The notes under the pieces were generated by a model. It was given only the letters and a program-made list of their open reading frames with translations. It searched no databases and had not been told where the DNA came from. From UHGV virus genome UHGV-0267581: a stretch of 30,715 nucleotides of DNA; one strand, given 5' to 3'. Source of the DNA: a virus. The first letter of the stretch is position 1. Each line of letters begins with the position of its first letter. A program made the translations under genes and the position numbers. Positions 1,703 through 28,968 of this stretch are shown here, piece by piece.

Positions 1703-1740
1703 CCCCTATCGTTATAATACGCGGTAGGGGCGTTTTGTTT
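1703..1740 (+). terminator. rho-independent terminator-like hairpin (imperfect dyad around TTATAATA) plus T-tract
   Basis: CCCCTATCG ... CGGTAGGGG stem with one wobble, followed by CGTTTTGTTT. Also a candidate recombinase site because of its dyad symmetry. Confidence 0.5.
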
Positions 1741-1749
1741 GGAAATGGT

Positions 1750-3429
1750 ATGAAAACTAAACTGTATTCGTATATTCGCTTCTCGTCTATGCGTCAGAAT
1801 GATGGTTCGAGTTATGAACGACAAATCAGGATGGCTAGAGAGATTGCGGTAAAGTATGACCTTGAACTGGTAAATGATTATCAGGATCTGGGTGTATCTG
1901 CGTTTAAGGGTGCTAACTCCAAAACAGGGGCGCTATCTCGTTTCCTTGATGCAATAGGTAGATCCGTTCCTGTTGGTAGCTGGCTATTCATCGAAAACTT
2001 GGACCGTTTATCCCGTGCCGATATTGTCAGTGCGCAGGAGTTATTCCTTTCAATCATCCGTAGGGGGATAACCATTGTTACTGGCATGGATAACAAGATC
2101 TACTCGCTGGATACTGTTACCGCTAACCCGATGGACCTGATGTTCTCCATCCTTTTATTCATCCGTGGTAATGAGGAAAGCCAGACTAAGCGCAATCGTA
2201 CTAACTCAAGCGCACTGATTAAGATTAAAGCTCATCAAGAAAATCCACAAAATCCGGCTGTTGCAATCGAGGAAATTGGAAAGAATATGTGGTGGACTGA
2301 TACCACATCTGGTTATGTGCTTCCTCATCCGGTCTTCTTCCCTATTGTTCAGGAAGTTGTGGAATTACGCAGGAATGGACGGTCAACCGCCGAGATACTG
2401 GATCACCTTAACGCGACATACACACCACCACCAGCCGCAAGTCACAAGAGGCATTCAAACTGGTCACGGGCAATGATTGAAAGGTTGTTCCATACCCGCG
2501 CTTTGATTGGTATCAAGGAAATCTCTGTAGATGGCGTTAAGTATGAGTTAAAGGATTATTATCCTCGTGTGCTAGATGACGCTGAGTTTTATCACCTTAA
2601 GAAAAGCATTGGTGTTAGAGCATGTAACTTTGGAGACAAAGAAGAAGTTAAACCTATTCCCTTGCTTAGTGGTGTTGGTCTATTGAAATGTGAACATTGC
2701 GGTTCCGCTATGGTTAAGGTGAAAGGAACAAACAGACGGCCTAACCAATATCGTTATTCATGCGATGCAATGCGCTCTAGTCGTATTGAATGTGTGCATA
2801 CAAACTGGAGTTTTCGCGGCGACCAATTAGAGAAAGCTGTATTGCAATTGCTGGCTGATAAAATCTGGATTGCTGAAGATAAGGCTAATCCGGTTCCGGC
2901 TTTGAAAGTACAGATTGATGAAATATCACGCAAGATTGATAACCTGATTACCCTTTCTGCTATGACAGGAGCAACGAAGGAGCTAGCCGATCAGATTACT
3001 ACCCTCAATAGCGAGCGTGAAACACTCTACAATCAAATTAAGATGGCAGAAGAGGAAATGTATTCTGTTGACTCTCAAGGCTGGGAGAAGCTCGCAGAAT
3101 TTGATTTAGAAGATGTTTACAACGAGGATCGCATTAAGGTCCGGTTTAAGATTAAGCAAGCTCTAAAACGGATCGGGTGTAGCAGGATTGACAAGTACAA
3201 AAACTTGTTTGTACTGGAATACATCGATGGCAAGACCCAGAGAGTTGTAATAGAAAATTCAAGAGGACCGAGGAAAGGCCGGATCTTCGTTGATTTGAAG
3301 ACTATCAATGATAGGCAGATTCTGGAGAGTAACGGGCTTGTTCTGCATCCATGTTTAGACATGCTGACAGATAAGAACTGGAAACCAGAAGAAGAAATAC
3401 CAGGTCCATTACAAGAATTTGGAATTTAA
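1750..3429 (+). CDS. large serine recombinase (integrase-type; resolvase-like catalytic domain plus zinc ribbon and coiled coil)
   Basis: N-terminal YIRFSSMRQ (catalytic Ser motif) and ENLDRLSRA (resolvase LDRLxR motif); cysteine cluster CEHCG ... YRYSCDA ... ECVH typical of the zinc beta-ribbon of large serine recombinases; heptad-rich C-terminus. ATG at 1750 preferred over the in-frame TTG at 1735. Confidence 0.85.
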   Translation: MKTKLYSYIRFSSMRQNDGSSYERQIRMAREIAVKYDLELVNDYQDLGVSAFKGANSKTGALSRFLDAIGRSVPVGSWLFIENLDRLSRADIVSAQELFLSIIRRGITIVTGMDNKIYSLDTVTANPMDLMFSILLFIRGNEESQTKRNRTNSSALIKIKAHQENPQNPAVAIEEIGKNMWWTDTTSGYVLPHPVFFPIVQEVVELRRNGRSTAEILDHLNATYTPPPAASHKRHSNWSRAMIERLFHTRALIGIKEISVDGVKYELKDYYPRVLDDAEFYHLKKSIGVRACNFGDKEEVKPIPLLSGVGLLKCEHCGSAMVKVKGTNRRPNQYRYSCDAMRSSRIECVHTNWSFRGDQLEKAVLQLLADKIWIAEDKANPVPALKVQIDEISRKIDNLITLSAMTGATKELADQITTLNSERETLYNQIKMAEEEMYSVDSQGWEKLAEFDLEDVYNEDRIKVRFKIKQALKRIGCSRIDKYKNLFVLEYIDGKTQRVVIENSRGPRKGRIFVDLKTINDRQILESNGLVLHPCLDMLTDKNWKPEEEIPGPLQEFGI

Positions 3430-8900: not shown

Positions 8901-9748
8901 CTGGCGTTCGGATCACATGCACCGTTTGAATGTAGGTCCATCTGGCGTACTTGTTTACGTACTTTCAGGAATGAATCAACGTTGATGTTTTCAATTGGTA
9001 CTGATAAACCATATTTTTCATTTGTTAGGTAGTGGAAAATCTGGTCCACGCCGTTAGTGCTAGCCTCAATAGCATTAGTTTCAAGGTTACGAATCTTTAA
9101 GCCCATAACATCGACTGCTACCTGGCTATTTGGCTGGAGAATATCAACACCAGCAGCAAGAGATTTGTCATCACGACGTAACACAATACACATGGTTGCA
9201 ATACCATTGCCTTTGTAGTTGTCGTTCCAGTCTGATCCTAAATGACGTTTTGCCAGTGACAAAGCGGTGTTAGGATTCTTACCCGTGCGGAACTCAACTT
9301 CTAAGACTTTCCGGTATTCTTCTTTAATGTTGCCTTTGTCCAGTACACCATCACGGATCGTCATGTTCTTACCAACAAGAACATTTTTGTTATCGATAAA
9401 CAGTGCTTTGTAATGGTCGATTTCACCCTCGGCAATTGCGAAGATTTGCACTAACTTATTGTTTTCTTGCTTGGAAATTGCCTTATAAACGCAGATTGCA
9501 CCCGTGCGGGTAGTACCAAAAAGAACGGGTAATACTGTCTTAGGATCGTTTGATGTTCCTAGTGTCACCGCATTATCCGGGCTTTGTACTTTCGGTGTTT
9601 TTGGTGCGCCTACAGTGGAAGCGATCAAGGTCATTGCACCAGCAGCCATACCGATAGCGACTGCGGTCATAACCGAAAATGTTGCGGCTGCCGCCATCCC
9701 CGCCGAAGCACCAGCAATAACCGCGCCTACCAATACTTCAAATCCCAT
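5972..9748 (-). CDS. tail tip / host-specificity protein (lambda J-like central fiber, 1258 aa)
   Basis: Last and largest gene after the tape measure and three small tail proteins (lambda order H-M-L-K-I-J); fibronectin-III-like segments (for example VTLTWDAPED); 10-residue repeats (AIxxAKIxNx) and other tandem repeats near the C-terminus; N-terminal Gly/Ala-rich hydrophobic stretch. Confidence 0.75.
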   Translation of the reverse strand: MGFEVLVGAVIAGASAGMAAAATFSVMTAVAIGMAAGAMTLIASTVGAPKTPKVQSPDNAVTLGTSNDPKTVLPVLFGTTRTGAICVYKAISKQENNKLVQIFAIAEGEIDHYKALFIDNKNVLVGKNMTIRDGVLDKGNIKEEYRKVLEVEFRTGKNPNTALSLAKRHLGSDWNDNYKGNGIATMCIVLRRDDKSLAAGVDILQPNSQVAVDVMGLKIRNLETNAIEASTNGVDQIFHYLTNEKYGLSVPIENINVDSFLKVRKQVRQMDLHSNGACDPNASFKENLTSLMQTFGGVMFESFGRITLKLDAPDIVKHTFNEDNIMMGKVSLKTGGTNGYFNTINAMYQEPSIDYSEQMLRYPADAENDATIRQDGRIIAKDIEYRFVKSKAQIDKLASVERNKSRITQVISFMTTDAFTAEVWDVISVTYDELKLNNSLWRITAIDRSIDSGIAGMMTITATEYNSQVYTDLNYAATPDNRPSGLPDSMTVQKPTNFRIKATGETIYGKNVTLTWDAPEDFNRYGFQIDYRVSGSPNWIKLGQTSQQIFSVNALAKDRSYDYRVCAFGIIARSDWVELINQNPTVTYELPTPVIRIKNQGSTPGTFEGNDLIIEWENQQQLDVEINGETNKFSDLFEAYIIKVTNKAGKSIQYRTRDPESWTYTLDMNQFNGLSRQLTVEVSAKGYNNSESAPARLVAINPQHKPMKGFSARGGFNSVFVSWADDVEHDYAGSIIQYATDNTFSDARAVSTNSVSHTSFVLADGDYYLRAAHYDIFGMDDAVWSEPYFMQMRSTISWDDQDKEALEDLIGLQDRLDETIADAIAQAGANADAKIDAMHKQITTETGQTVQASANTLKSLIATSEQASSTKIDQVKAELKGDIKSEVSASATTLKQAIATSEAASASKIDQVRVEMDGKIAGVNQEADVKIDALKGTINSKYNLAVNADGRVAGIHMSATNDPAQPTRIIFNADKIAVAPQNGSEVCPFGIEGNKVYLDNAMIRNAAIGTAQINDAAITTAKIGNAAINSAKIQDGAITNAKIVNGAIDNAKIGNYIQSSNWNGSTGWHINKNGSATFMNATVKGNITADSGTLNNVTINSSCVIKGMLEATQVKGDFVKVIGRKFPHRDVNVDNGYAGYPQGTVTVRVEDDHKFDRQIVIPAVSFGGLRAREGSNNNTFYDTCRLIVRKNGSELYNRAYGGNTGLYSGVIDMPAGKGAVTLTFEVQSSAINNWTPSTWISDLTVMVTKKATTGITVS

Positions 9749-14572: not shown

Positions 14573-15079
14573 TTAAGAGATTTTCAAAGTCTGCTTAGTG
14601 CCAGTCTTCTTAATGTTATTGAGGAAAGCAGCCGGAGGATTGCTTAACCAATAGTAATGAAAACCGCTTTGCATACTGTTATAAGGAACAGTGACAGCAG
14701 CACCACCCAAATTAACGGTTATATTCCCCGCTCTACCGTTCTGGAGATATACAGCCATAGTAGGAGTACCGCCATTGAATTGACCAACGATAACGCCAAT
14801 CAGACGCCCTACGCCCACGTTTTCGGGGTTCTCCATAGATCCTTTACCGCGCATGTCAGTTACTGGATAGTTTGAAGCAGTTACACCCCAGTTATTACCC
14901 AATGAAGTAGACCACGCAGCAGTAGCTACAACCGTATCCATACCACGACCACACATCGCACTCATGTTAGCTGGGCGACTAACCTTTAATGCGTTCATTG
15001 CTGCGCTCATCCATCGTTGACCAGTTACAGAAACAGCAGATGACCCGACCCAGCCAGGCTTATTAACGACATTCGCCAT
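14573..15079 (-). CDS. virion structural protein of unknown role (168 aa; Gly/Ala/Ser/Thr/Asn-rich, almost uncharged)
   Basis: GGAG SD 8 nt upstream; lies between the tail-tube candidate and the chaperone gene. Confidence 0.5.
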   Translation of the reverse strand: MANVVNKPGWVGSSAVSVTGQRWMSAAMNALKVSRPANMSAMCGRGMDTVVATAAWSTSLGNNWGVTASNYPVTDMRGKGSMENPENVGVGRLIGVIVGQFNGGTPTMAVYLQNGRAGNITVNLGGAAVTVPYNSMQSGFHYYWLSNPPAAFLNNIKKTGTKQTLKIS

Positions 15080-15094
15080 TTTGATTACTCCAAT

Positions 15095-15121
15095 AAAAAA
15101 GCCCCACCATTAAGGCAGGGC
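15095..15121 (-). terminator. intrinsic terminator downstream of the tail-protein extension (GCCCUGCC-UUAAU-GGUGGGGC then U6 on the minus strand)
   Basis: 8-bp stem with two G-U wobbles, 5-nt loop, U-tract; near-identical copy at 20930-20955. Confidence 0.6.
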
Positions 15122-15127
15122 TTATAA

Positions 15128-15250
15128 TTAATCTTTAGCCTTGCGGCTTCGTTTAGCTGTGGCTTTCGCCGTAACTTCTTCTACTTCTGGAATCACCACC
15201 GCTTCATGTTCCGGCTGTGGTTCCGGTTCGGGAAGTTCTTCGTTAGTTCA
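15128..15250 (-). other. in-frame recoded extension after a TGA stop (39 codons: TNEELPEPEPQPEHEAVVIPEVEEVTAKATAKRSRKAKD, ending TAA)
   Basis: Hand-translated; same frame as the upstream gene, no internal ATG, UGA-ACU-AAC context and C-terminal VTAKAT...RK.K motif shared with the extension after the capsid gene. Confidence 0.55.
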
Positions 15251-15721
15251 TCCGGCAGTGAAGATTTGCTGTTTCAGCGGAGCACCATCCACCGCGAAGG
15301 TAAACTCTTTGGTTACAACTTCTTCATCGCCACCGTTCATAGCAACTTTAGAAATGAAGCCGTTGAAAGCGGTGCGAATACCAGTCTGTTTTGCTGCGTC
15401 AACGTAATATTCTACTTTAATCTGAATACGAGTACCGTCTTCGGCAGCTTTGATCAGTTTTTCATGTACCGCATCGCCTGGGATGTAGTTAACGGTCAGA
15501 GTCAGATCAGGAACGTTCAGCTTCCCTACCAGTTTACGGTTATACTGAGAAGAGAAGGATTTAACTTCTACAGTACCGCGCTCGATACCAGTTTCAGGAA
15601 AACCAGCACACTCTTTAATTTCTTCGTAGCTTTCGTGGTCGAGAGCGGTATTAGTGGTGTCCGCGTGATAGAACAGACTTACCAGACCACCAGTAAAAAT
15701 ATCTTTGAATTGCTGAGACAT
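15248..15721 (-). CDS. major tail (tube) protein candidate, 157 aa
   Basis: AAGGGGTAATTCT SD context shared with the other abundant late genes; size and position fit a tail-tube protein; carries the TGA-readthrough extension. The role (tube versus other abundant virion protein) is inferred. Confidence 0.5.
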   Translation of the reverse strand: MSQQFKDIFTGGLVSLFYHADTTNTALDHESYEEIKECAGFPETGIERGTVEVKSFSSQYNRKLVGKLNVPDLTLTVNYIPGDAVHEKLIKAAEDGTRIQIKVEYYVDAAKQTGIRTAFNGFISKVAMNGGDEEVVTKEFTFAVDGAPLKQQIFTAG

Positions 15722-15777
15722 AGAATTACCCCTTAATTAAAATTGTTATTACGGGGGAACTAGTCCCCCGACTTTTA

Positions 15778-18700
15778 TTATTTAGTTGCTTTCAGTTCGG
15801 CAATTTCTTTCTGTAATGCTTCGATCTGGGCTTTATATTTGGCGTCCATTTCCTGCATAGCTTTGATGATTAAAGCATTGACAGCAGAGTTAGAAATAGT
15901 CTTGATTGCTTCTGGATTTTCTGGATCTTCGGTGGATTGAATACCTACTGCTTCCGGCAATACTTCTTCCAGATCCTGAGCAATAATACCTACTTCGCGT
16001 TTAATCACACTACGGTCTTTAAGAGATTTAACTTTATCGTAGGTGTAGACTTTCAGTGAGTTTACTTTCTCTAATGCGCCGTCCTGTAATTCTTCCTTGT
16101 TAATCTTCAAACGGGAGTCAGAGCGAATGTAAACATCGTTAAACGAACCGTTACGACCTGCGGTAAAGTCACCAGCAGCGTTAAAGTCAAAGTTAGTATC
16201 ATGAACATGGAGACGAACAAGAGCGTTACCGATAGTACCGTCAGGAACGTGCACACCCATTGCTGCAATGTGATATTTACCCCAATGCGTCGCTTTCCAT
16301 ACGTTATGTGCCGAGTTGGTGGATTGAGGACACCCAACCATAAGACCAGCAGCACGGTCACGCCAGCTAGCCCAACTACCGCCAGCAACTTCACCACGAA
16401 TCAGGCCATTACCGCCACCGGTTACAGTACCAGATTCCAACTGGATCATTTTATCTGCAAATTTCCACATCTGGGCTTGTTTCTGACCACGGAAGCGAAT
16501 AGCACCAGCATCATCGCAGTACATCAAGCCTAACTCTAAACCGTTCGGATCTCTAAACCAGATGTGCTTATTGCCAGTGCGTTTAAACTCAATATCAGCA
16601 CCGTTGATAGTGATATTACCGCCAGTGTGAATTGCTTGAGGCTTAACAGTACCGTTGATGGCAAACTCAATTGCCGTAGTACCCGGACCGCCCGGACGTT
16701 GGGTATACCAATGCCAACCGCTTTCATCAGCACATTCAAATACTTGTTTACGAGCATCAGCGCCCCATGCACGAATATTGAAACTAGAAGTAGCTGTACC
16801 CTTACCCCAGCGAATCAGACCAGCAGATTCCAAATCACCGAAGAATTTAGTTTTAATCGCACCAGTTGCTAAAGTACGTTCAGTGGTGAAGTGAGCACCT
16901 TTACTATCTTCAAGCTGTATAACGTTATCACGAGCGTTATTGCTATCGCCCCAATGACTCAAACGGAAATAGTCGCGGGATTGTCCAGCACCAGCATCAA
17001 ATGTTAAATATTGGCCTTTAATGTATGTGTTTCCAGCAAAACGAGCAGCACGACTTGCACGTTCTAAGACTAATGCACCTTCGTTACCATCACCACCCAA
17101 AGTAACATTACCGCTACCCAGATTGTAAATGAATGGACGATAGCCGTTCCAACCACCAAATTTATCATTTTCGGCAGTAGACAGAAGATATACGTTTTGA
17201 CCATCATTACGCCAGAATGCACCATAGTTACCGTAAATCATACGGAATGCATCACTGTTAGCAGCTACATATTGACCATTGGTGTATACAATTTTGGTAG
17301 CACCTGTGCTTAAAGATACTTGACCACTTGCTTCTAATTTAACAAAGTTTTTACCTTCGTCACTATACCATTGAAAATCGTTAGTATCTGTAGAACCAAA
17401 ACCAAACCAGCCTTGACGTTTATTAGCCCCGTCTCGCTGATCCATATATTCAAAATAGTTACTACGACCAGTAGGACGCCACATACGAATCGCGTTATTG
17501 CCTTGCAGATGAAGTCTATCGACAAATAAACCATCACTACCAACAATTTTTAATACTTCTTTTTGGTCGGTGGAACCAGTAGCCAAACGATACACATCAC
17601 CTTGAACAGTTTCATGCCATATTGTTTCCGCCGCACGACTGCGGAATTTACGCATATATTTTTTATTGTTGTCTGGTACGTTATTAAGGCTCACAATATC
17701 ATAGGTTGCTTGTGAGTTATTATCAAACATCAACGTTCCGGCTTTGTTTTCGGTGTTGAACATCGTAATAACACGAGCATCGGTAACACCAACAGAAGGT
17801 TTAACGAGAGTTAATTCAGGAACATCATGTACTGTCAGAGTAACGCCATCAGTTTTACCGTATTCGACAATAACGTTATCGGTGTAACGACCGTAGTTAA
17901 CGTAGATATCGTAGTTATCACCGGAAGTATTAACCGCAAATACTTGATGAACGTTCAGAGCATTTCGACGATAAGCAGCAATACTAACGCCTTTCGGGTT
18001 ATTGTTACCGGAACGGATGACAATTTCTACAAAGTCAACCTGATCATAAGAGTTAACGTTATAACCATTACCACCGAAGATACGAAGCATTACCATTCGA
18101 CCATTCTGTGGGATCGTAGCGGTTGCGATCTTGAAGTATCCACGAGTAGCATCACCAGAAGGAACGGTCATTCTAACGTTCTTGATGAACATCTGATCAA
18201 CTTCGGCTTTACTATACACACCCAATTCAGTCGGAGTCGGCTTATCACCTTCGTGATACATGCGGTAGCTGAATCGCTTATTACCATCTTTATCAAAGCC
18301 ATAGGTTTTAACTTGAGATGAGCTAGACCCATAGTGGAACTCAAAACCGCGACCGTGTGCTTTACCGCCAGAATGAGGAATGTTAAGGATTAAGTTACCC
18401 CAACCTTCGGCATTGTTTGGACGGAATGCACCAAAATAATCAAGGTTACGAGCACCAGCATCATCAAAATAGTTAGCTGTTTTGGTTAACAGATAGCCGT
18501 GATGGTAAGTGTTGGTATTCTTCTTGATGTAAGCAGCATCGGCACTACCTTCAATAGAATCAATTCGCTGGTTAGCTGCGGCAATTGCGGCATCAGTAGA
18601 AGATTTATTCTGGTCTACCTTGTTGTTAATTGCTGTATGGTTGCTATTAACTGTCCCCGTAAGATTGGTGATCTTCGTGTCGGCATCGCGTTTATTATTT

Positions 18701-19278
18701 GCTACGGTCGTTTCTATGGCTGATTTATTTGCTGAGACAGTATTCGTTAAGTTAGTAACGTTGGTATTAGTCTGATCAACTCGTGCATTAATATCTGTCT
18801 TGTTCTTGTTAATTGTTGCGTTGATAGTATCGCGGGTTGAAGTAATAGTCTGATTCAGTTCAGTCTTAGCAGCCGCCAGAGCGTTAGCCGCTTCGGTTTT
18901 ATTGTTACCTACTGTGGTAGTCAAAGCATCAATTCGTTTGTTGGCTGCGGTGTCGCCAGCAGTGATTGAAGCATTGAGAGCATCACGGGTAGAAGTGATA
19001 GTCTGATTCAGTTCAGCTTTAGCACTAGCCAGATTATTAGCGGCTTCTTGTTTGTTGGAAGCAATAACACGGTCAGTGCTAGTTTTGTTATTGTCTACTT
19101 TCGTATTCAGTTCAGCGTGTTTTTCTGGAGAAACACTAATTTGGACTACGTTATTATTTTTGTCTTTGGTGTAAATCACATGATCCGCCAACTGTAAGGC
19201 GATTTCACCCTGTGATAATTGTTCCGGCGTTGGTTTTTTACCCGCCGTCTGTGTGCGTTTAAATTGGATTGATTGCAT
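15778..19278 (-). CDS. side (L-shaped-type) tail fiber with C-terminal intramolecular chaperone, peptidase S74-like (1166 aa)
   Basis: C-terminus YIRSDSRLKINKEELQDGALEKVNSLKVYTYDK... matches the autoproteolytic chaperone signature known from phage T5 pb1 and endosialidase tailspikes; N-terminal 51-residue tandem repeats (ELNQTITSTRD twice); two KPTPxELG fiber-anchor-like motifs (residues 15-22 and 346-353). Confidence 0.8.
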   Translation of the reverse strand: MQSIQFKRTQTAGKKPTPEQLSQGEIALQLADHVIYTKDKNNNVVQISVSPEKHAELNTKVDNNKTSTDRVIASNKQEAANNLASAKAELNQTITSTRDALNASITAGDTAANKRIDALTTTVGNNKTEAANALAAAKTELNQTITSTRDTINATINKNKTDINARVDQTNTNVTNLTNTVSANKSAIETTVANNKRDADTKITNLTGTVNSNHTAINNKVDQNKSSTDAAIAAANQRIDSIEGSADAAYIKKNTNTYHHGYLLTKTANYFDDAGARNLDYFGAFRPNNAEGWGNLILNIPHSGGKAHGRGFEFHYGSSSSQVKTYGFDKDGNKRFSYRMYHEGDKPTPTELGVYSKAEVDQMFIKNVRMTVPSGDATRGYFKIATATIPQNGRMVMLRIFGGNGYNVNSYDQVDFVEIVIRSGNNNPKGVSIAAYRRNALNVHQVFAVNTSGDNYDIYVNYGRYTDNVIVEYGKTDGVTLTVHDVPELTLVKPSVGVTDARVITMFNTENKAGTLMFDNNSQATYDIVSLNNVPDNNKKYMRKFRSRAAETIWHETVQGDVYRLATGSTDQKEVLKIVGSDGLFVDRLHLQGNNAIRMWRPTGRSNYFEYMDQRDGANKRQGWFGFGSTDTNDFQWYSDEGKNFVKLEASGQVSLSTGATKIVYTNGQYVAANSDAFRMIYGNYGAFWRNDGQNVYLLSTAENDKFGGWNGYRPFIYNLGSGNVTLGGDGNEGALVLERASRAARFAGNTYIKGQYLTFDAGAGQSRDYFRLSHWGDSNNARDNVIQLEDSKGAHFTTERTLATGAIKTKFFGDLESAGLIRWGKGTATSSFNIRAWGADARKQVFECADESGWHWYTQRPGGPGTTAIEFAINGTVKPQAIHTGGNITINGADIEFKRTGNKHIWFRDPNGLELGLMYCDDAGAIRFRGQKQAQMWKFADKMIQLESGTVTGGGNGLIRGEVAGGSWASWRDRAAGLMVGCPQSTNSAHNVWKATHWGKYHIAAMGVHVPDGTIGNALVRLHVHDTNFDFNAAGDFTAGRNGSFNDVYIRSDSRLKINKEELQDGALEKVNSLKVYTYDKVKSLKDRSVIKREVGIIAQDLEEVLPEAVGIQSTEDPENPEAIKTISNSAVNALIIKAMQEMDAKYKAQIEALQKEIAELKATK
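18821..19060 (-). repeat. intragenic tandem direct repeat in the fiber gene (two units about 153 bp apart)
   Basis: Identical 18-mer TAGTCTGATTCAGTTCAG at 18846-18863 and 18999-19016 with similar flanks; encodes the duplicated ELNQTITSTRD segments. Confidence 0.7.
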
Positions 19279-19359: not shown

Positions 19360-20193
19360 TTAGTATTCGCCGAAATCGATCCGGTCAGTCTTAGCCACTG
19401 CGCCAATTTCGCTAGGTGTCGGTTTCTCATTGGTGGAATATACCTTGATCCATTCAGAACGACCGTTTTCCTGAATATTTCGGACACGTAAACGCGGTGC
19501 GCCAGAAGTATTACAGGTTAATTGCCATGCGCCATGCTCATTAGCTTGAAGGTGAATTAATGCTGTGTCGGTTGAATATGGATTACCGCTAGCAGTTCCC
19601 TTGTAAGTTACGAAACGGTTTCCGGCTAATGCCTCGCTGTCAATCGGACCCGTGAATGGATTTACACCAGCACCCAAACCAAAATCACCCTGACGTAAGA
19701 TCCGGCCTTCGGTAGCAATACCCCTTGCCAAAATCCCGCCATCTGGTTCAAGTTTAAATTCCAGTGTTACAGCTTTGTTATCACTACCACGGGTTTTATG
19801 TGATGTGACGTAAGCATCGAATATACAAAAGTACCCTGTGTTAGCAGCACTATAGCCAGAGTTCACAACATAGAACATACGGAAGCGTAAAGGTGTTTTA
19901 TCCTCTACCGCTTTCATCAACATTGCTTGATGTTCATCGTCAAGAACACGGTTTAATGTGAGTGTTGTCGGTTCCAGTCTACGATAACCAGCAAGTTTCC
20001 CCGTAGCGTCCTGATCGTACTCTTCCAGAGTTTCTATCTCTGTGGATTCGGTTAGCGTAGGGAATGCTGCGATGTTCTCCATAGAACTAAAGCTAGGATC
20101 GAAAAAGTCGACCTGATTGTCTATCTGGTTAGAGATCGACACTTCAACATGTGATCCAGTGAAAATATCTAAGTTATCTTGTGTAATATTCAT
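19360..20193 (-). CDS. virion structural protein (277 aa); possible tail or collar protein with a C-terminal KPTPSEIG motif
   Basis: Late-operon position between connector-size genes and the fiber; the C-terminal NEKPTPSEIGAV resembles the motifs in the fiber; followed by a hairpin. Confidence 0.5.
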   Translation of the reverse strand: MNITQDNLDIFTGSHVEVSISNQIDNQVDFFDPSFSSMENIAAFPTLTESTEIETLEEYDQDATGKLAGYRRLEPTTLTLNRVLDDEHQAMLMKAVEDKTPLRFRMFYVVNSGYSAANTGYFCIFDAYVTSHKTRGSDNKAVTLEFKLEPDGGILARGIATEGRILRQGDFGLGAGVNPFTGPIDSEALAGNRFVTYKGTASGNPYSTDTALIHLQANEHGAWQLTCNTSGAPRLRVRNIQENGRSEWIKVYSTNEKPTPSEIGAVAKTDRIDFGEY

Positions 20194-20202
20194 TATTACC
20201 CC

Positions 20203-20625
20203 TTAAAAACGCGCTAGATAAGAAAATTTAAGGCTAAGTGTCCCAACGATACCCCCATCACTAGAATCATCGTCATAATCGGTATTAGAAGCTACTGGAG
20301 TGATATCTGAAATAGAGAAGCCCAAATCTTTAAATCGTGGGTTATCCGGCTGAATCTGGATTATCTGGCAAATACCCTCATGGATTTTTGTTTCATGAAT
20401 CTGAGAATATAATTGCATTTCGATAACGCATTCAGCTTGCATTGCATTACCACCACGAACACGCGTATAAGTTTCATTCATGCCAGTAATCCAACAAACC
20501 ACGTCATCACTAAAGCCTTGCTGAGTTTGTTCTACGTTTAAAGCCAGACCTAAATCTTGTTCGATAATATCTTGCAAGGCGCGTTTGATTTTCAGTCTCG
20601 GCATATTATTAACGGTAGCGAGCAT
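20203..20625 (-). CDS. head-tail connector or tail completion protein candidate (140 aa)
   Basis: Position after the capsid gene; AGGGGG SD; small acidic protein. Positional call only. Confidence 0.45.
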   Translation of the reverse strand: MLATVNNMPRLKIKRALQDIIEQDLGLALNVEQTQQGFSDDVVCWITGMNETYTRVRGGNAMQAECVIEMQLYSQIHETKIHEGICQIIQIQPDNPRFKDLGFSISDITPVASNTDYDDDSSDGGIVGTLSLKFSYLARF

Positions 20626-20899
20626 GTGTACCCCCTGCTAAAGTGATAAAGCAATCACAAGTATTGTCACCATTGCGCTTAACGTATTGAACTTTGAAAC
20701 GCTGGTTTTCTACTGTGACAATATCACCTTGCTTTAAGTCTCCCTCACGACAGAATAGAAATTCGGTTTCTGTCATTACACCTGATTCGTCGGTAGTAGT
20801 AATTTCATGGTAAGCACGAATTGATTTACCACCTTCCACCGAAAATACAGGAGCACTTTTAAACATTCGATTTAATTGTGATTCTGATAATTTGAACAT
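20609..20899 (-). CDS. head-tail connector / head completion protein candidate (96 aa)
   Basis: First gene after the capsid terminator. Positional call only. Confidence 0.45.
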   Translation of the reverse strand: MFKLSESQLNRMFKSAPVFSVEGGKSIRAYHEITTTDESGVMTETEFLFCREGDLKQGDIVTVENQRFKVQYVKRNGDNTCDCFITLAGGTHARYR

Positions 20900-20929: not shown

Positions 20930-20955
20930 AAAAAAGCCCCACCGTTAGGCAGGGC
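20930..20955 (-). terminator. intrinsic terminator downstream of the capsid extension (GCCCUGCC-UAAC-GGUGGGGC then U6)
   Basis: Near-identical to the hairpin at 15095-15121, including both G-U wobbles. Confidence 0.6.
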
Positions 20956-20961
20956 TAATTA

Positions 20962-21093
20962 TTATTCTTTAGTTTTACGTTGTTTTTTAACTGTGGCTTT
21001 CGCCGTAACCGTCTGAGATTCTTCTTCCTGAGATGGAATCAGATTTTCTTCCCCCAAATCGGGGGAAGGTTCAGATGGTTCTACGTTAGTTCA
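20962..21093 (-). other. in-frame recoded extension after a TGA stop (42 codons: TNVEPSEPSPDLGEENLIPSQEEESQTVTAKATVKKQRKTKE, ending TAA)
   Basis: Hand-translated; same frame as the capsid gene, no ATG, conserved UGA-ACU-AAC context and VTAKAT basic tail shared with the 15128-15250 extension. Confidence 0.55.
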
Positions 21094-23097
21094 TTCAGCG
21101 GAGATGTGAAGAACTTTCAGAGCTTCCGGCTGAACTACGGTGAAGTCCAGGTCTACCCAGATACGCGGAACGATAGCAGACTGTGCGCGGTAAGTGGTGT
21201 CGTCCATATCCAGTTCCAGACCACCCCATTCACCGATCATGATACCGGAGAAGTCACCCAGAACGATGTGGTCTGCCGGAATAACGCCAGAAGTAACTAC
21301 ATCGTAACCAGCCAGTTTGCCGTTTTCGATGATATAACCGGAAACGCCGTTATCTTTCAGGGTAGATTCCAGTTCAGCAGCAGTTGCACCGCTCATTGCA
21401 AACTTGATGGACTGTGCCGGAACGCCAGCGTCGGTCAGTGCTGCAATTTCTTTCAGGAAGTCTTTGTAGCTAAAAGCGGCTTTCTTAGTAACGCGACCAC
21501 CGTCTACCAGTTGCTTAACCAGACCTTTCGGACCGCGCTCGTTGTCTTTGTCAGACAGAATCAGTTGTTCCAGTTTGATCCGAACAGATTTGTTAATGTG
21601 ATCAGTGATCAGGGTAGCAATATTCGGAACAGTTTTCAGAGACTGACGGCTGATCGGGTTGCCACCAGCAAAAGTTTTCGGAGCCATTTTCACGTTTTCA
21701 AAGCTAGCCTTCGATTCGGGGGCACTTCCATTTTCATCAACAAAACCAAAGGCTTCGACGCTGGAAGCAGTCATTTTTGGTACTGCAATCGGGCTATTCA
21801 GACCAGACAGAACAGTCACACCCAGACGACCCAGAACAGACTGTGGAAGCAGCATTTCTACATAGGATTCGGTCAGCAGTTTTTCGTCGGTTACAGCGGT
21901 CAGAGTAGCTTTGGTGTTACCTTCGGAAGCAGCACGCAGAGCAGCAGCCGGAACGAATACAGAGCCACCGCGAGCAGCACGACCACGCTGCATTGCAGCA
22001 CCAGCAGCCATAGCGGAATATTCAGCTTCGTTAGCGCCGAGCACGTCGCCATCTACCAGGGAGCGGATTACGTTATTAAGATCGAAAGTTTTTTCCATGA
22101 TTTGTTCCTTATTAATTTGTTCGTTATTACGTTGAACATTGGTAATGTTATTTAGTGCCTTAGTGCGGAATGCTTCCGGCGTCATATCTTTAACTGCCAA
22201 TGCGCGTTCTAATTCTTCGTCGTTAATATTTAACTCACGAGCGATTGCTCGGATTTCTTCTTCGTCTTCTTCGGAACGTTCAGCCACTTCTTCTATTTTT
22301 TCTTCTTCAACCGGAGCGGCTTCACGTTCTTCTTTTACTTCTTCTGTTTCCCGAACAGTTGAACTATCATCATCAACACTTTCAGGATGTTTAGCGTCTT
22401 TTCCGTCTTCGAGATTTTCATCTTCTTTATTCTCTTCAACTTGGCGCTCTTGAGTTTCTTCTACTTCCGGTTCTTTATTTTCTTCTACCGGAGTTTCTTC
22501 AACCTGAGCGGGTTCTTGTTCTTCTTTGATTTCTTCGATTTGTTCTTTAGTCATATCGCGTTTAGCCTCCAAATTAACTGTGATAGTATTTAGAGAGCGA
22601 TTCAGACCCACGGTGTCGTCTGCGGGAACAGACACCCATGAAACCTCGTGAGGAATCCATTTAGTAACAATCAATTGTCCTTTGGTGTAGTCGATGTGAT
22701 ATTCTTTAATGTCATAACCGACAGAAATTTTTTCCATCGTACCTTCAATGACTTTATTACGAATATCATTAGCCAAAGTGCCATGCTTAGAGAATTTAAC
22801 CAGAGCACGACCTACGTTATCCGCATCGATTCGAGCGTTACAAACGACACCAATATGATTATCGAAATTATGATTGAACAGCAACGGAGCGTTATTATTC
22901 AGACGAGACAGATCAACCGCTTCCGGTGTATGTACCAGAATTTCATCTAATACCACCATTTCTTGATTTTGCTCATCCCAGAATTGGCGCTGATAAGGCT
23001 GTTCACTGGAGAAAGCAATTTCAAATTCGTATTGATCATTCTGCCCTTCGTTAATAACTCCACCGTAACCGTTAAGATCGCGGCGAAATTTAAGCAT
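21091..23097 (-). CDS. prohead protease / acidic linker / HK97-type major capsid protein encoded as one 668-aa polypeptide
   Basis: N-terminal roughly 170 aa resemble HK97-family prohead proteases; a roughly 120-aa Glu-rich low-complexity linker follows; the C-terminal roughly 300 aa resemble HK97-fold major capsid proteins; sits after the portal in the canonical order. Confidence 0.8.
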   Translation of the reverse strand: MLKFRRDLNGYGGVINEGQNDQYEFEIAFSSEQPYQRQFWDEQNQEMVVLDEILVHTPEAVDLSRLNNNAPLLFNHNFDNHIGVVCNARIDADNVGRALVKFSKHGTLANDIRNKVIEGTMEKISVGYDIKEYHIDYTKGQLIVTKWIPHEVSWVSVPADDTVGLNRSLNTITVNLEAKRDMTKEQIEEIKEEQEPAQVEETPVEENKEPEVEETQERQVEENKEDENLEDGKDAKHPESVDDDSSTVRETEEVKEEREAAPVEEEKIEEVAERSEEDEEEIRAIARELNINDEELERALAVKDMTPEAFRTKALNNITNVQRNNEQINKEQIMEKTFDLNNVIRSLVDGDVLGANEAEYSAMAAGAAMQRGRAARGGSVFVPAAALRAASEGNTKATLTAVTDEKLLTESYVEMLLPQSVLGRLGVTVLSGLNSPIAVPKMTASSVEAFGFVDENGSAPESKASFENVKMAPKTFAGGNPISRQSLKTVPNIATLITDHINKSVRIKLEQLILSDKDNERGPKGLVKQLVDGGRVTKKAAFSYKDFLKEIAALTDAGVPAQSIKFAMSGATAAELESTLKDNGVSGYIIENGKLAGYDVVTSGVIPADHIVLGDFSGIMIGEWGGLELDMDDTTYRAQSAIVPRIWVDLDFTVVQPEALKVLHISAE

Positions 23098-23142
23098 TTA
23101 ATCACCTTTAATTAATTGGGGGCATTGCGCCCCCGTTGGTTA

Positions 23143-24654
23143 TTAGGGATCGGTTTGAGAAGGGTTATCCTTGCTCTCACCATCAACGATAATATTTAGT
23201 GCGCTCTTTTCGGCTTGAATCTCTGAGAATACTTTTTCAGGATCATCACCACGTTCTAATATAACGGCAGTACGTGATTTAAGTCCGTTATCAATTAAAG
23301 CAATCTCGGCGCTTACGTCTTTAAATGGATCGACGGATTCAAAACGAGGACGAATAATAGTAGTGTTCTCGATAATATGCGGAATTGCAGTAATACGAAT
23401 CGGAACAATACCACGCGCAGAATAATGGCGTAGATATGCTTCAAAAATTGGCAATACCACTGTTTCAATCAATTTGTTTTGCAGTGCTTTAACGCGCGTT
23501 CTTTGAAGTAATTCGCCGTAGCGTGCGGCGCTGTAATTTATTTGGCTAGTATCGCCAGTTAAGCCCTGATTGAACACGCCAAGACCCATCGCTATACTCG
23601 TGAACATTCCATCATTGAAGCTGTTAAAGTCATCGCCGCTTTGCGTGGATTGAATACTCTTGATCGTTGCCCCTTCCGGTAATTCCTGAATAGTACCTGG
23701 CGCGAAATCGTGAATAACTTCCGGCGCTTGATATTGTTCATCATCTTCACCAGTATCAAAATCGTCACCAGAATCTTTCGGACGCTCGATGAACGCCATG
23801 CTACAACTTGAAATTCGTTTATGTACCAGTACAGCTTCGCGGAATGCGTCTTGATGTGCGATATCCTTAATCACTGGCAGGAAGTCAGTCACACCACGCA
23901 GAGATTCAGCCGCAAGTGGTTGATAATAATGACATACTTGCGAAGCATCTACGCGATAGTTATCACCTGTGTAAGTCTGAGTCAGTAGGTTGATTTTACG
24001 AAACCAAAATGCAACAGGGCGCATTGTTTCTACGTCATACTCGATCCCCTGATAGATAGCGCGTTCTTTGCTTACTTCACGGTTGAGCGTCCAGTCGCAC
24101 TTATCAGCAGACAGGATAGAAACATTTAACTCATTGTTTTCTTTGGTTAAAACTATGAAGCACTCACCACCCATAACGCGCTCACGTTCAGCCATTACCA
24201 GCAATTCACGGAAGTTAAAGCGACCGTTACGAGAGAAGCGTTTAGCATTCTGCGCCCACTTCCAGAAAGCATTCTCGATCTGCTTATTCAGTGCGCTATC
24301 AAGTTTTCCATTTGATTTAACAACTGACGGCTTCGGATCTAGGCCAGTACCTACCACCATATCGGTGATGTATTGCGTGTAGCGACTGCCTACGGAGGTG
24401 TTTAAGGCCAGAGTACGACCCTGATCATAAAGGCGCTTACCATTCGATTTGAGAGCCTTATTGAAGGTTCCTGTGATAGTATCTTGTTGAAGCGATCCAT
24501 CAATGCGATCACCAACCAGACCTAAACTTCGAGTAGCCAGAGATTTCTGGAATTTTTCTACTTGTTTGTCGATAAAGATTTTTTGTTGTTGCTGGCGGTG
24601 ATTAGTTTTAACTGGAGTTTCTACCGCCTTTTTGCGTCGAAAAAGATTAAACAT
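23143..24654 (-). CDS. portal protein (lambda gpB-like, 503 aa)
   Basis: Position between the gpW-like gene and the protease-capsid gene; size and weak sequence resemblance to lambda-family portals; AAGGGGTAAA SD. Confidence 0.75.
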   Translation of the reverse strand: MFNLFRRKKAVETPVKTNHRQQQQKIFIDKQVEKFQKSLATRSLGLVGDRIDGSLQQDTITGTFNKALKSNGKRLYDQGRTLALNTSVGSRYTQYITDMVVGTGLDPKPSVVKSNGKLDSALNKQIENAFWKWAQNAKRFSRNGRFNFRELLVMAERERVMGGECFIVLTKENNELNVSILSADKCDWTLNREVSKERAIYQGIEYDVETMRPVAFWFRKINLLTQTYTGDNYRVDASQVCHYYQPLAAESLRGVTDFLPVIKDIAHQDAFREAVLVHKRISSCSMAFIERPKDSGDDFDTGEDDEQYQAPEVIHDFAPGTIQELPEGATIKSIQSTQSGDDFNSFNDGMFTSIAMGLGVFNQGLTGDTSQINYSAARYGELLQRTRVKALQNKLIETVVLPIFEAYLRHYSARGIVPIRITAIPHIIENTTIIRPRFESVDPFKDVSAEIALIDNGLKSRTAVILERGDDPEKVFSEIQAEKSALNIIVDGESKDNPSQTDP

Positions 24655-24664
24655 GATTTACCCC

Positions 24665-25159
24665 TTATCGCGTAAGACGTAATTTGATATTTTTAATCGG
24701 ACTAATTCCCTGTTTACGTCGTTCGGCTTGAATTAATTTAGATAACTGACGTTCATAATCAGTCTTTAATTGCTGGAGAACAGCCAATGACTCATAGGCG
24801 AAAGTATTCCCTTTCACTGTCATTTGAGATAATGCGGCTTCGTCCCCAGATAAACGGGCGAAAATAACTTGCTCGATTAAGGCGATAGTTTCCCGCAGAT
24901 ATTCTTTTTTGGATTGTTTGGCGAATACTGGCAAAACAGTTAATTCCTGCATTGATACCAGTTCTTCTTCCAAAGTTATTACGATGGTATATTTACCTTC
25001 GGCAAAATCTAAGGTTTTAATCTCATGATTAGCCGGAGAATCATCAACCTGATAGATAATACCTTTATTATTTCCTACCTGAATTGTTACACCCTCTTCA
25101 TTCGCCAGCGTGACTTTTTCGCCTTTACGAATTACTAAGGGAATTAGTTCTAAACTCAT
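24665..25159 (-). CDS. head-tail joining protein candidate (gpW-like C-terminal domain with an N-terminal extension, 164 aa)
   Basis: Position between terminase and portal, as for lambda W; the C-terminal half loosely resembles the gpW pattern. Confidence 0.45.
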   Translation of the reverse strand: MSLELIPLVIRKGEKVTLANEEGVTIQVGNNKGIIYQVDDSPANHEIKTLDFAEGKYTIVITLEEELVSMQELTVLPVFAKQSKKEYLRETIALIEQVIFARLSGDEAALSQMTVKGNTFAYESLAVLQQLKTDYERQLSKLIQAERRKQGISPIKNIKLRLTR

Positions 25160-25231: not shown

Positions 25232-27136
25232 TTAGAACGATGTTACCCAGCTACGGCCTCTATTTGGGCGTCTGGCGATGTTTTTACGTTGTGGTCGTGT
25301 GATTGGCTTATTTTCTTCGATTTGCTCGTCAGATTGCGATTTAGGAGCTTCTACGGGTTCTTCTGGTTCGCGGTTCAAACTATCTTTGATGGCTTCGAGT
25401 TTTTCCCATGACATTTTATTGAGTACATGGCGAGAAGCAGCATAGGAATAAGCCAGGCAGTCGAGAGCCTCGTTTCGTTGCTGACCAACTTTTACCCAAC
25501 GTGTGGTATTACCCTGCCGTTTCAACTGTTCAGATAACAATTGTTCGCAGTAGTCATCAGGAACGTCACCAATCTGGAAGACCGTATGAGGATCGCTGTC
25601 TCTCAAGTTCCGGTTAATCATTTCACGGATCATCGTCTTAAGGTTGTTTACGCCCAGAATTTTAAGAGTAAAACCACCCGTTCTTGTGTCCTTGACCGGA
25701 AGGATTGGAGCATCAACATTGCTTGCCCCTTTAATGGCGCATAGGTTTTGCCACCTAGTGCAGAAGCGATAGATCACGTTTGTAGCTCGTCCGTTCGATG
25801 AGTCCACGAAAGCAGATAGCATCGGGATTCGTTGACCTGATCGGGTATAGAATTTAGCTTTCAGGAAGTTGTAAAGCTGGTCATATGCTGGCGATTCGTG
25901 GCGTTCGCAGTTCACATCATAGAATGATCGGTGATCAACTACGCATATCCCCTTACGAGAGATACCCAGCAAGGTAGATTCCAGACGGTCTTTTTGCTGG
26001 TCAACTCCACCTACCAGAGCCAGAACATCATCAGGAATATTATCTAAGCTAATGTCAGTTTTCAGCGTTTCCAGTTCGTCGGCTGTGCGGTCTTCGTTAA
26101 GATCATCGAAGGTTTCACCGAGCACCACATTATAGAACGTTGCCAGTGACATATTCGCGTAGCTATCAGCAAAGTCCACCACACACGCACGGATAGAACT
26201 AAACGGAGACATAAGGCGGTTAGCATGAAAACCGATTACTTCCGCATTTGGTTCGGTGGCGACCCATTCTCCCTGAGCAACAGCACGGAGGCGATCTGGT
26301 TCTGACCAATCAGTTTCACATGACGGGCAACGGTAAACGGCTGTGTCTGGATTCGGCAGTGATTTACCATTGATTACATGCCAATCAAAGAATACTCTAC
26401 TCCATTCCATTACGTGTTTGTGTCCGCAATGCTGGCAAACGACGTGGTATTTTCTTTTATCCGAGAGTTCCCATTGTTGGTTTATCGCCCCATCCCGCGA
26501 AGTTGGAGTAGAAGCAATTACGATCCTTGCATCATCACCGAAAGTGGTTGCGCGTTGTTCCGCTAGCTGGATCGGGTTCCCTTCGTCTGACTCATCAGCC
26601 GCATCAACTTCATCCAGAATAATCAAAGGCAGTGTCTTACCGCGCAAGTGTGATGGACTGTTCAGCGACATGAAATACATGAATGATCCGTTACGAAGCT
26701 GAATAATCGATGAGTTGTTAACGGCATTGCGATCTGATTTGTCGGTGATCATCGCCTTTAATTCTGGGGTTGCCTCTAATACTGGCTTCACCTTACCCGC
26801 AATCCATGAGTTCAATTCTCGAACGTTCGCTTGCAAAACACCGATATTAGTAGGGTTACTGGCGATCCTGTGAAAGATAATACCGTTTAGCACAAGAGTT
26901 TTACCCAACTGTGCCGAGCACTTTAGCACAATTTTTCGCCTATCTTCGGTGATCGCGTCCATCATTCCACGTTGGAAGGGATGCAACTTAATTAGAGATC
27001 CGGCTTTAACACCATCGGTTGCAACTACATTAGCCTCTACCCATTCGCTAGGTTTCATCGTTTTAGGTGGGCGAATTGCCGCAGAGATATTTTTAAGAAT
27101 CTTTTTTAATTTGGCCTTATTAGAAATCAGTTTCAT
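25232..27136 (-). CDS. terminase large subunit, lambda GpA family (634 aa)
   Basis: Walker A CSAQLGKT and Walker B LIILDEVD; segments resembling lambda gpA (PSEWVEAN, HPFQRGMMDA, CQHCGHKHV, RNEALDCLAYSYAA); first gene of the late operon; GAGGG SD. Confidence 0.9.
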   Translation of the reverse strand: MKLISNKAKLKKILKNISAAIRPPKTMKPSEWVEANVVATDGVKAGSLIKLHPFQRGMMDAITEDRRKIVLKCSAQLGKTLVLNGIIFHRIASNPTNIGVLQANVRELNSWIAGKVKPVLEATPELKAMITDKSDRNAVNNSSIIQLRNGSFMYFMSLNSPSHLRGKTLPLIILDEVDAADESDEGNPIQLAEQRATTFGDDARIVIASTPTSRDGAINQQWELSDKRKYHVVCQHCGHKHVMEWSRVFFDWHVINGKSLPNPDTAVYRCPSCETDWSEPDRLRAVAQGEWVATEPNAEVIGFHANRLMSPFSSIRACVVDFADSYANMSLATFYNVVLGETFDDLNEDRTADELETLKTDISLDNIPDDVLALVGGVDQQKDRLESTLLGISRKGICVVDHRSFYDVNCERHESPAYDQLYNFLKAKFYTRSGQRIPMLSAFVDSSNGRATNVIYRFCTRWQNLCAIKGASNVDAPILPVKDTRTGGFTLKILGVNNLKTMIREMINRNLRDSDPHTVFQIGDVPDDYCEQLLSEQLKRQGNTTRWVKVGQQRNEALDCLAYSYAASRHVLNKMSWEKLEAIKDSLNREPEEPVEAPKSQSDEQIEENKPITRPQRKNIARRPNRGRSWVTSF

Positions 27137-28170: not shown

Positions 28171-28968
28171 TTACAGTCCGAAGTGTTCTAGCGATCCAAC
28201 ATTCTGACGAATCATGATAGTCGCTTTATTCTGAATCATGATCGTGTTATTCGGTTTAGGCAGTGTCAAAGCTGCTTTTTGTTCTTCTTCAAGAACACCC
28301 AATTCAACCAGCACCGGAAGCACATCAACAGTGAAAGAAAGTTGATAGTGAGCGTTCATGCTGCAAAACGGTATCGCGGAATCATTAGCAACATACCCAC
28401 ACGGCTTGTTATTTTCATCATAGACGCGCTCAATGTATCCGGCAGTACGTAAGGCCGTCAGTGCTTCTTTAACCTTCGTAGCGCCCTTTTTAGCACCTAA
28501 CAGACGCGTCATTGAATGGCTATCTACGGATTTGCGATGATGTAGAGTAATCAGTTGCTTGTTCTCGCGAGTTTTCTTTAACGCCAGTTCGATCCAGTCG
28601 GTTTCTTCAAAGTCTGCATACGGGTTAACGGCTAAACGTTCCTGACGCAGTTTTTCATTTTCTTCTTTCAGTCGTTTCCATTCCTGAATAACAATCATTC
28701 GACGTTTAACATCGTAACCAGTAACAAGAGTCAGCGTCATTTCTTCGTCAAGGTGATATTCGGTTTGTTCGCGTCCATATTGGTCAAAATAGATACGCTG
28801 AGATTTCAGCGCATCTAATTCAAGTGCTTTAAACATCTTAACAATATCAGCTTTAACGTTTTTGTGTTCTTTTCCGGTAAATTCAGCGATCTGACGAGAA
28901 GACATGGTCAGTGGTTTGGTGTTATCAACAACCAGAGACACGGAAGCAGTTTTAACAGCAGTATTCAT
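28171..28968 (-). CDS. Rha-family phage regulatory protein / antirepressor-like (265 aa)
   Basis: N-terminal LTMSSRQIAEFTGKEHKNVKADI matches the conserved Rha N-terminal signature (recognised from memory); AAGGGGGA SD. Confidence 0.7.
   Translation of the reverse strand: MNTAVKTASVSLVVDNTKPLTMSSRQIAEFTGKEHKNVKADIVKMFKALELDALKSQRIYFDQYGREQTEYHLDEEMTLTLVTGYDVKRRMIVIQEWKRLKEENEKLRQERLAVNPYADFEETDWIELALKKTRENKQLITLHHRKSVDSHSMTRLLGAKKGATKVKEALTALRTAGYIERVYDENNKPCGYVANDSAIPFCSMNAHYQLSFTVDVLPVLVELGVLEEEQKAALTLPKPNNTIMIQNKATIMIRQNVGSLEHFGL

Follow-up and report, generated by a model that had tools for sequence, protein, structure and literature searches.

Introduction

In phage HK97 the prohead protease (gp4) and the capsid protein (gp5) come from two adjacent genes in that order, the scaffold function resides inside the capsid precursor, and the protease, recruited non-covalently, removes the N-terminal part of that precursor. 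Papers on actinobacteriophages have described a 'protease-scaffold-capsid fusion', in which one gene encodes protease, scaffold and HK97-like capsid, as in Microbacterium cluster EE (for example, BurtonThePup gp5), Arthrobacter AN, AM and AU, Gordonia CW and DM and Rhodococcus RRH1 (PMC7302621, PMC5513430). Nested protease/scaffold genes have also been established, namely lambda C/Nu3 and UL26/UL26.5 of herpes simplex virus 1 (HSV-1), both as cited in a preprint where such nested expression is shown by ribosome profiling for gp17/gp17.5 of the archaeal virus HFTV1 (10.64898/2026.09.13.751334). In these three cases, an in-frame internal start past the protease domain yields an abundant protease-less assembly protein next to a minor protease-bearing one. 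Here we analyse UHGV virus genome UHGV-0267581, a stretch of 30,715 nucleotides (the window, in what follows, is this whole stretch), in which a single gene encodes prohead protease, a scaffold-like region and major capsid protein as one chain of 668 residues. The product works like HK97 gp4 and gp5 joined covalently in one chain: it shares with that pair the protease family, the catalytic His and Ser, the capsid fold and the position after the portal gene. The explanation that we favour, on balance rather than firmly, is that a complete head-shell module is encoded in one gene, that its product is proteolytically processed, and that there is probably a nested start.

Results

Domain architecture of the fusion protein

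The gene is a single open reading frame (ORF) on the minus strand, with an ATG start and a TGA stop (Table 1). Its product was divided into five segments using an AlphaFold2 model (55 diverse homologues; mean predicted local distance difference test score (pLDDT) of 81), a three-way alignment with the homologues from Dinoroseobacter phage vB_DshS-R4C (R4C; Cronusvirus) and phage phiHAP-1, and an alignment of 147 family sequences. Foldseek searches with the full-length model returned capsid hits only, and the protease domain was therefore modelled separately; the model so obtained has a fold resembling that of capsid proteases and of herpesvirus assemblin. The N-terminal region matches Pfam family PF04586 (Peptidase_S78, Caudovirus prohead serine protease) over residues 40-162, with 39.2 bits against a cut-off of 21. 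Ser125, in the sequence KISVGY, aligns with the nucleophile Ser114 of HK97 gp4 (GMSVGF), and His76 (LLFNH) corresponds to His65 of the same protein (FFNH). His76, Ser125 and Glu151 are found in 147 of the 147 relatives, and Asp160 in all of these except one (146/147).

At the other end of the chain, residues 410-664 match PF05065 (Phage_capsid) with 92.5 bits (cut-off 24.2). The R4C capsid structure (PDB 8gta; E 1.2e-27) is the only solved relative of this domain that was found by sequence, and the top Foldseek hits are the capsids of R4C, D3, RcGTA and HK97, each with a probability of 1.00. The original prediction of an HK97-type prohead protease and an HK97-fold capsid domain at the two ends of one polypeptide is thus confirmed by profile, structural and active-site comparisons. 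Lys169, the crosslinking residue of HK97, aligns with Ala459 here (21721-21723) and with Thr in R4C; an HK97-type chainmail crosslink (Lys169-Asn356), a trait of HK97 itself and not of its capsid family at large, is therefore not expected at this position.

Between the two domains lie an acidic spacer and a helical region, together about 218 residues, compared with 103 for the delta domain of HK97. Residues 176-300 contain 52 Asp and Glu against 17 Lys and Arg (34% Glu; net charge -35). The spacer is an insertion relative to R4C and phiHAP-1 and is about twice as long as the family median: it ranges from 15 to 152 residues in the family, with a median of 56, and comprises 110 residues here by the boundaries of that alignment (residues 168-277). 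Since its length and sequence vary while its charge is net negative in 92% of family members, acidity and disorder are what is conserved, and not the sequence. The region that follows contains predicted helices at residues 276-288, 293-301, 307-336 (30 residues), 340-349, 355-370 and 384-391. It holds the conserved blocks common to R4C and phiHAP-1, and its length is tightly kept (family median 123 residues, interquartile range 119-129; 122 here). A scaffold or delta-like role had initially been given to a Glu-rich segment of about 120 residues; the Glu-rich stretch is real, but by analogy we propose that the conserved helices of residues 272-393, which had been missed, are the likelier equivalent of the scaffold or delta domain.

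A dead protease relic kept as scaffold mass, or two genes joined by an error of assembly or sequencing, could in principle produce a similar picture. Indeed, the NCBIfam equivalog TIGR01543 (HK97 proheadase) was not reached (34.5 against a cut-off of 59), and in one of the IMG/VR relatives (L036, IMGVR_UViG_2877285697_000006), which may be a decaying prophage copy or contain a sequencing error, a frameshift ends the ORF at codon 393. Both readings are nevertheless effectively refuted, and we assign them a negligible probability, given the intactness of the ORF, its relatives and the invariant active site, which includes His, Ser and Glu in every one of the diverse relatives, within an assemblin-like fold. 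The reading frame is open in 32 of the 33 IMG/VR relatives, in more than 100 independent assemblies and in hundreds of distant lineages. A protein 100% identical to the product (P0002) is encoded on 106 contigs, and E. coli and Shigella sonnei are the source of over 120 clusters with 94-100% identity and lengths of 665-670 residues. Among 5426 complete E. coli genomes, 55 carry the locus, chromosomal every time, and in these PGAP annotates one gene, 'phage major capsid (family) protein'. The lysogen E. coli 14EC029 (NZ_CP024141) is 95% identical in DNA over the head region. An ORF that is intact across so many genomes is not a sequencing artefact, which settles in the affirmative whether these 668 codons form one gene. 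Between portal and gpFII-like genes, neither the ORF list nor profile searches showed any further gene for a protease, scaffold or capsid protein, which also speaks against a dead relic.

Probable maturation of the capsid protein

R4C gene 006 encodes a protein of 629 residues with the same architecture and flanking genes as the fusion in the window. The chain deposited as 8gta consists of exactly residues 362-629 of R4C gp6, and its first residue maps to about Thr400 here. The R4C structure paper describes a T=7 shell with 415 copies of the capsid product and sets it against the covalently cross-linked capsid of HK97; the missing 361 residues go unmentioned in it, and processing is not discussed. 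The length from about Thr400 to the C terminus is conserved throughout the family (median 268; 269 here), and the GG-x-LV motif that the family has at the mature N terminus reads LTAVT in this protein. The virion chain of R4C is confined to the 268 residues at the C terminus; accordingly, a start near residue 400 is expected for the mature protein here. The predicted mature capsid protein would span approximately residues 400-668 (269 residues; 28.7 kDa), the exact bond being placed only approximately, and by analogy with the R4C virion, with its 268 of 629 residues, the protease domain is predicted to cleave the capsid precursor. We consider it very probable that the gene is a true fusion and that its product is processed.

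Distribution of the fusion family

The combination of protease and capsid protein in one chain had been thought uncommon, which our searches contradict. The protein matches phrog_617 end to end (E 7.9e-95; residues 20-663 on profile positions 23-621 of 626), as well as phrog_4523, 'major head and protease protein' (E 5e-39). R4C gene 006 and the phages of phrog_617, which include the Rhodobacter RcC-cluster phages, phiHAP-1, VP882, the Xanthomonas FoX phages and Escherichia phage ECO1230-10, have full-length homologues with about 27-32% identity and the same domain order. Searches with tblastn recovered the full-length architecture in phiHAP-1, VP882, the FoX phages, the RcC cluster and others, and further in Synechococcus S-CBS1/3 and Escherichia phages ECO1230-10 and ep3, some of these being annotated 'major capsid protein and protease'. 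The NCBIfam family NF045541, 'prohead protease/major capsid protein fusion protein', was not reached (128 bits against a cut-off of 525), with only the N-terminal half aligned; the fusion described here is of the same architecture and of a different lineage. At a threshold of E<=1e-30, an exhaustive search yielded 512 cluster representatives (clustering at 50% identity); of the best 150, almost every one has 560-700 residues and is matched at both ends. A single peptide pattern recovers more than 432 IMG/VR contigs. One shorter protein (P0156; 297 residues), 46% identical over residues 23-310 of the query, contains only the protease, the spacer and the start of the helical region; it may be a contig-end fragment or a member of a split-gene lineage, and a real split would bear on the origin of the fusion.

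The actinophage fusions differ from this gene in several ways. Even their own groups resemble one another little or not at all in sequence, and no nested start is reported for them in the same papers (PMC7302621, PMC5513430). They belong to genomes of 15-17 kb, whereas the gene described here lies in a prophage of normal size in a Gram-negative host. Fused protease-scaffold-capsid genes are already catalogued and common; what may be new is a conserved internal start.

A candidate nested start past the protease domain

Translation of the whole chain alone would give one protease per capsid subunit, a consequence that had been drawn for this gene from the outset unless an internal start existed. 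A scan for in-frame start codons found such a candidate, Met182, located 15 codons past the end of the protease domain and preceded by GGAGG (-9.3 kcal/mol against the anti-Shine-Dalgarno sequence). Its use would give a predicted product of 487 residues (residues 182-668; 53.1 kDa), with the frame running on into the capsid domain. ATG182 is kept in 34 of 34 close relatives and GGAGG in 29 of them, and the Shine-Dalgarno sequence of the query is stronger than 92% of its synonymous recodings (percentile 0.076).

An alternative nested start at Met334, which has AUAAGGAA upstream (-6.2 kcal/mol) and coincides with the shift in GC content described below, was not retained for the family, since R4C lacks a Met at this place and that of phiHAP-1 has no Shine-Dalgarno sequence.

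The family was sampled with 80 diverse IMG/VR loci together with R4C, phiHAP-1 and Escherichia phage DCP80, reduced to 53 clusters at 70% identity. Directly past the protease domain, R4C has Met189 preceded by GGAGGA (spacer 4-5 nt; -9.5 kcal/mol) and phiHAP-1 has Met152 preceded by GAGGA (spacer 6 nt), so that both share the nested-start feature with the window gene at about 30% identity; DCP80 has an equivalent site at the identical offset of +15. An in-frame ATG occurs between +5 and +35 codons past the protease domain in 49 of the 53 clusters and is accompanied by a Shine-Dalgarno sequence of -5 kcal/mol or stronger in 40. Such a sequence precedes 77% of these ATGs and 17% of the other in-frame ATGs of the same genes (odds ratio 16.5, p 9e-20). 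Composition does not account for this, the sites standing at a median percentile of 0.10 among non-ATG codons of the same purine-rich region (p 2e-7), and the positional profile has one peak, with 25/53 at +10-19 and 13/53 at +20-29 against 0-7/53 in all other bins; several exceptions have their site at +36 to +39 or use a GTG start. The internal Shine-Dalgarno sequences equal those of the presumed 5' starts in strength, and their spacing peaks at 6-8 nt (43/60 sites). Around the ATG, the 40-nt mRNA window is among the least structured 9-10% of the gene (p 6e-9), and the same holds within the linker (p 3e-8). When synonymous codons were resampled with the protein sequence and the codon usage of each gene held fixed, the Shine-Dalgarno sequence exceeded its expected strength at these ATGs (median percentile 0.17, p 1e-5) and fell short of it at other ATGs (0.79). 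Met is about twofold enriched at +11 to +25 among the 147 representatives, and in the 53 clusters the Met of the internal site is usually followed by Pro, Ser or Thr. Both motif and offset vary by lineage, which argues for upkeep by selection rather than simple inheritance.

Could the element be something other than a start? It might serve as a translational pause that allows the protease to fold, or be the remnant of an ancestral HK97-like gene pair; it sits exactly at the domain boundary, and HK97 has the two genes adjacent in the corresponding order (protease, then delta-capsid). However, neither an ATG 6-8 nt further on nor weakly structured mRNA is required for a pause. A remnant would not survive while both the motif (GAGGA, AGGAG, AAGGA, GGAGG) and the offset (+7 to +39) change among lineages about 30% identical, and it would show no selection at synonymous sites. 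Such explanations are improbable in our view. The signals in this sequence sample make a functional nested start likely for the family, and in most members two products, the full-length chain and a scaffold-capsid protein that lacks the protease, are probably translated from one frame. Taking the whole family together, we lean towards reading the fusion genes as two-product nested genes, in which the protease-less scaffold-capsid protein would be the main shell subunit and the full-length chain a minor, lattice-embedded carrier of the protease.

Several observations weigh against the interpretation given so far, some of them for the family and others for this gene. The scaffold role of residues 272-393 rests on analogy, and the cleavage position relies on the chain as defined by the R4C authors. 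The 53 clusters are mutually related, so that the p-values overstate their independence. About 15-25% of lineages are without a clear ATG and Shine-Dalgarno sequence at this place, and among the 147 representatives one third lack a Met up to +25; given these members, a single-product mode must be viable. For the window gene, the spacer of 11 nt between GGAGG and ATG182 falls in the tail of the family distribution (2/60), compared with 5-6 nt in the R4C and phiHAP-1 group, and the mRNA around ATG182 is only moderately relaxed (16th percentile). Among 33 close relatives (alignment with L004-L035), synonymous diversity is near zero over codons ~170-275 (22270-22590), with the flanking codons 143-165 and 281-295 among the most diverse (0.3-0.47); as the low diversity spans all codons of 170-275, it is not attributable to the internal ribosome-binding site. 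The nested product itself is deduced from sequence alone.

These points bear on the simplest alternative, in which only the 74-kDa chain is translated, protease, scaffold and shell domains are present at 1:1:1, cleavage occurs in cis or in trans, and the internal ATG and GGAGG go unused in this phage. The 5' start has a good ribosome-binding site, from which ribosomes would tend to occlude the internal one; the 11-nt spacer is suboptimal, the signal is absent from a minority of the family, and published descriptions treat such genes as simple fusions. On the other hand, the ATG, Shine-Dalgarno, spacing, structure and synonymous-site signals of the family coincide at one fixed position, ATG182 and its Shine-Dalgarno sequence are maintained here as described above, and a single product would impose an internal load of about 19 MDa, estimated below, on the procapsid. 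We therefore regard the single-product alternative as rather unlikely, though it is the most serious rival to a nested start. As to whether the nested start is used in this particular prophage, the sequence evidence leaves us evenly divided.

The block of low synonymous diversity over the acidic spacer may reflect a recent recombination sweep or a constraint on the nucleotide sequence.

The locus and its genomic context

The fusion gene lies within a lambda-like head operon (Table 1), and the two further loci inspected, R4C and phiHAP-1, have the same order of terminase large subunit (TerL), head-tail joining protein, portal and fusion. No decoration-protein gene is visible in the head operon, and no tRNA gene is present in the window. 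The remaining genes of the window encode tail fibres, tape measure, distal tail protein, a large serine integrase and an anti-repressor. In a near-identity DNA search, 8.2 kb of the window found no match among 50,697 phage records. The element is a temperate, lambda-like E. coli prophage of siphovirus type, known only as a prophage and with no close cultured relative.

Table 1. Coordinates of the fusion gene, its segments and the neighbouring head genes in the window
Feature	Position	Strand	Details
Whole ORF	21091..23097	(-)	668 aa, 73.9 kDa, pI 4.6; TGA at 21091-21093, ATG at 23095-23097
Shine-Dalgarno sequence of 5' start	23102..23108	(-)	AAGGTGA, 4-nt spacer (AAGGTGA-TTAA-ATG); anti-Shine-Dalgarno duplex -6.9 kcal/mol
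Prohead serine protease domain	22594..23037	(-)	aa 21-168
Catalytic His76	22870-22872	(-)	protease domain
Catalytic Ser125	22723-22725	(-)	protease domain
Invariant Glu151	22645-22647	(-)	protease domain
Acidic disordered spacer	22285..22593	(-)	aa 169-271; pLDDT <50, low complexity
Candidate internal ribosome-binding site and nested start	22552..22570	(-)	GGAGG 22566-22570, 11-nt spacer, ATG of Met182 22552-22554
Conserved helical region	21919..22284	(-)	aa 272-393; high pLDDT
Flexible hinge NTKATLTAVTDEKL	21877..21918	(-)	aa 394-407; pLDDT <50; predicted maturation cleavage near 397-402
HK97-fold major capsid domain	21094..21876	(-)	aa 408-668
gpA-type large terminase (TerL)	25232-27136	(-)	lambda-like head operon
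gpW-like head-tail joining protein	24665-25159	(-)	lambda-like head operon
Lambda-family portal	23143-24654	(-)	lambda-like head operon
gpFII-like protein	20609-20899	(-)	lambda-like head operon
Major tail protein	19360-20193	(-)	lambda-like head operon

A GC-rich hairpin, GGGGGCGCAATGCCCCC, is found at 23117-23135, between the portal stop and the fusion start, and a terminator-like hairpin with a T-run at 20935-20956, about 140 nt past the fusion stop; in the HK97 record, putative terminators are annotated at the two corresponding places, one following the portal gene and one the capsid gene. Within the fusion gene the GC content changes near codon 333 from about 40% to about 50% (positions 22100-23097 and 21091-22100, respectively). 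At third codon positions the GC fraction of the capsid part is 0.47, that of the protease part 0.37 and that of the acidic spacer 0.21, compared with 0.28-0.45 in the neighbouring genes, and GC at second positions is higher too in the capsid part because it is rich in Ala and Gly. Either a mosaic joint or codon adaptation in the part expressed most highly could underlie the shift. On the strand opposite the capsid-coding part, an ORF of 391 residues (20980-22155 (+)) is probably no more than a shadow of the coding sequence with the higher GC content.

Among cultured phages, Escherichia phage DCP80 (L117; PQ671644.1, 1734-13136) has the most similar fusion (43% identity). Its 141-kb record, placed in Straboviridae/Tevenvirinae, is possibly chimeric or includes a mis-binned prophage. 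Around the fusion, this record has an annotated terminase large subunit and hypothetical proteins, placed as in the terminase-portal-fusion module of the window. Elsewhere in the window, the integrase is of the large serine recombinase type (1735-3429 (+), 564 aa, phrog_95) and lies near one end, and the anti-repressor-like gene is at 28171-28968. A long tail fibre gene (15778-19278; 1166 aa) resembles the distal subunit gp37 of T4, and an adhesin-like tail fibre gene is found at 14573-15079. These fibre genes (14573-19278) are flanked by the major tail protein gene on one side and the tape-measure region on the other, an unusual site for side fibres when compared with lambda. A second fibre or central-fibre gene (1258 aa) occupies 5972-9748.

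Discussion

The mechanism that we propose for this gene would proceed as follows. Starting on the portal, the capsid domains would assemble a procapsid of T=7 type with the N-terminal parts facing inward, where the helical region of residues 272-393 may act as an internal scaffold in the manner of the delta domain of HK97 and T5. The acidic tether could keep the protease mobile, give it reach and exclude DNA from the interior. Once activated by crowding, the protease would cut the tether and the scaffold and, last, the hinge near residue 400, leaving a shell protein of about 29 kDa and 269 residues; the shell would expand on DNA packaging, without HK97-type crosslinks. If the internal ribosome-binding site and the ATG of Met182 are also used, they would yield the 53-kDa protease-less scaffold-capsid protein, effectively an equivalent of HK97 gp5. 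Shells would then combine subunits of 53 kDa and 74 kDa, with a dose of protease that is not fixed at 1:1 but depends on the relative frequency of initiation at the two starts.

A rough estimate from textbook dimensions illustrates what is at stake. If all subunits were full-length, 415 copies of 45 kDa would amount to about 19 MDa of internal protein, which is roughly half or more of the cavity of a T=7 procapsid and about twice the scaffold load of P22. If most subunits were of the nested form, about 10 MDa would lie inside the shell, similar to the scaffold load of P22.

In its logic the proposed scheme follows the nested protease/scaffold genes of lambda, HSV-1 and HFTV1, with two differences. 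There the nested product is scaffold only and the capsid protein has a separate gene, whereas here it would comprise scaffold and capsid. Those cases are experimentally supported, whereas the present one is known from its sequence only. In the literature searched, the coverage of which is incomplete, neither a description of a nested start within protease-capsid fusions nor usable virion proteomics of cultured members such as R4C and the FoX phages was found.

Public databases hold the protein as a plain 'phage major capsid protein'. A better name for the gene would be prohead protease/scaffold/major capsid fusion, since only the last ~269 residues would constitute the mature capsid protein. 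Such naming matters for proteomics, for structure building and for capsid-based phylogenies; the numbering in the R4C paper, for instance, omits the 361 residues that are removed. If the internal start is used, it would explain how phages of this kind avoid carrying one protease per subunit, and it would offer a simple, testable example of the translational control of capsid composition. It would also extend the strategy of lambda C/Nu3 and UL26/UL26.5 to a nested product that is the capsid protein itself, with the dose of protease set translationally, and would be one more respect in which tailed phages resemble archaeal tailed viruses and herpesviruses.

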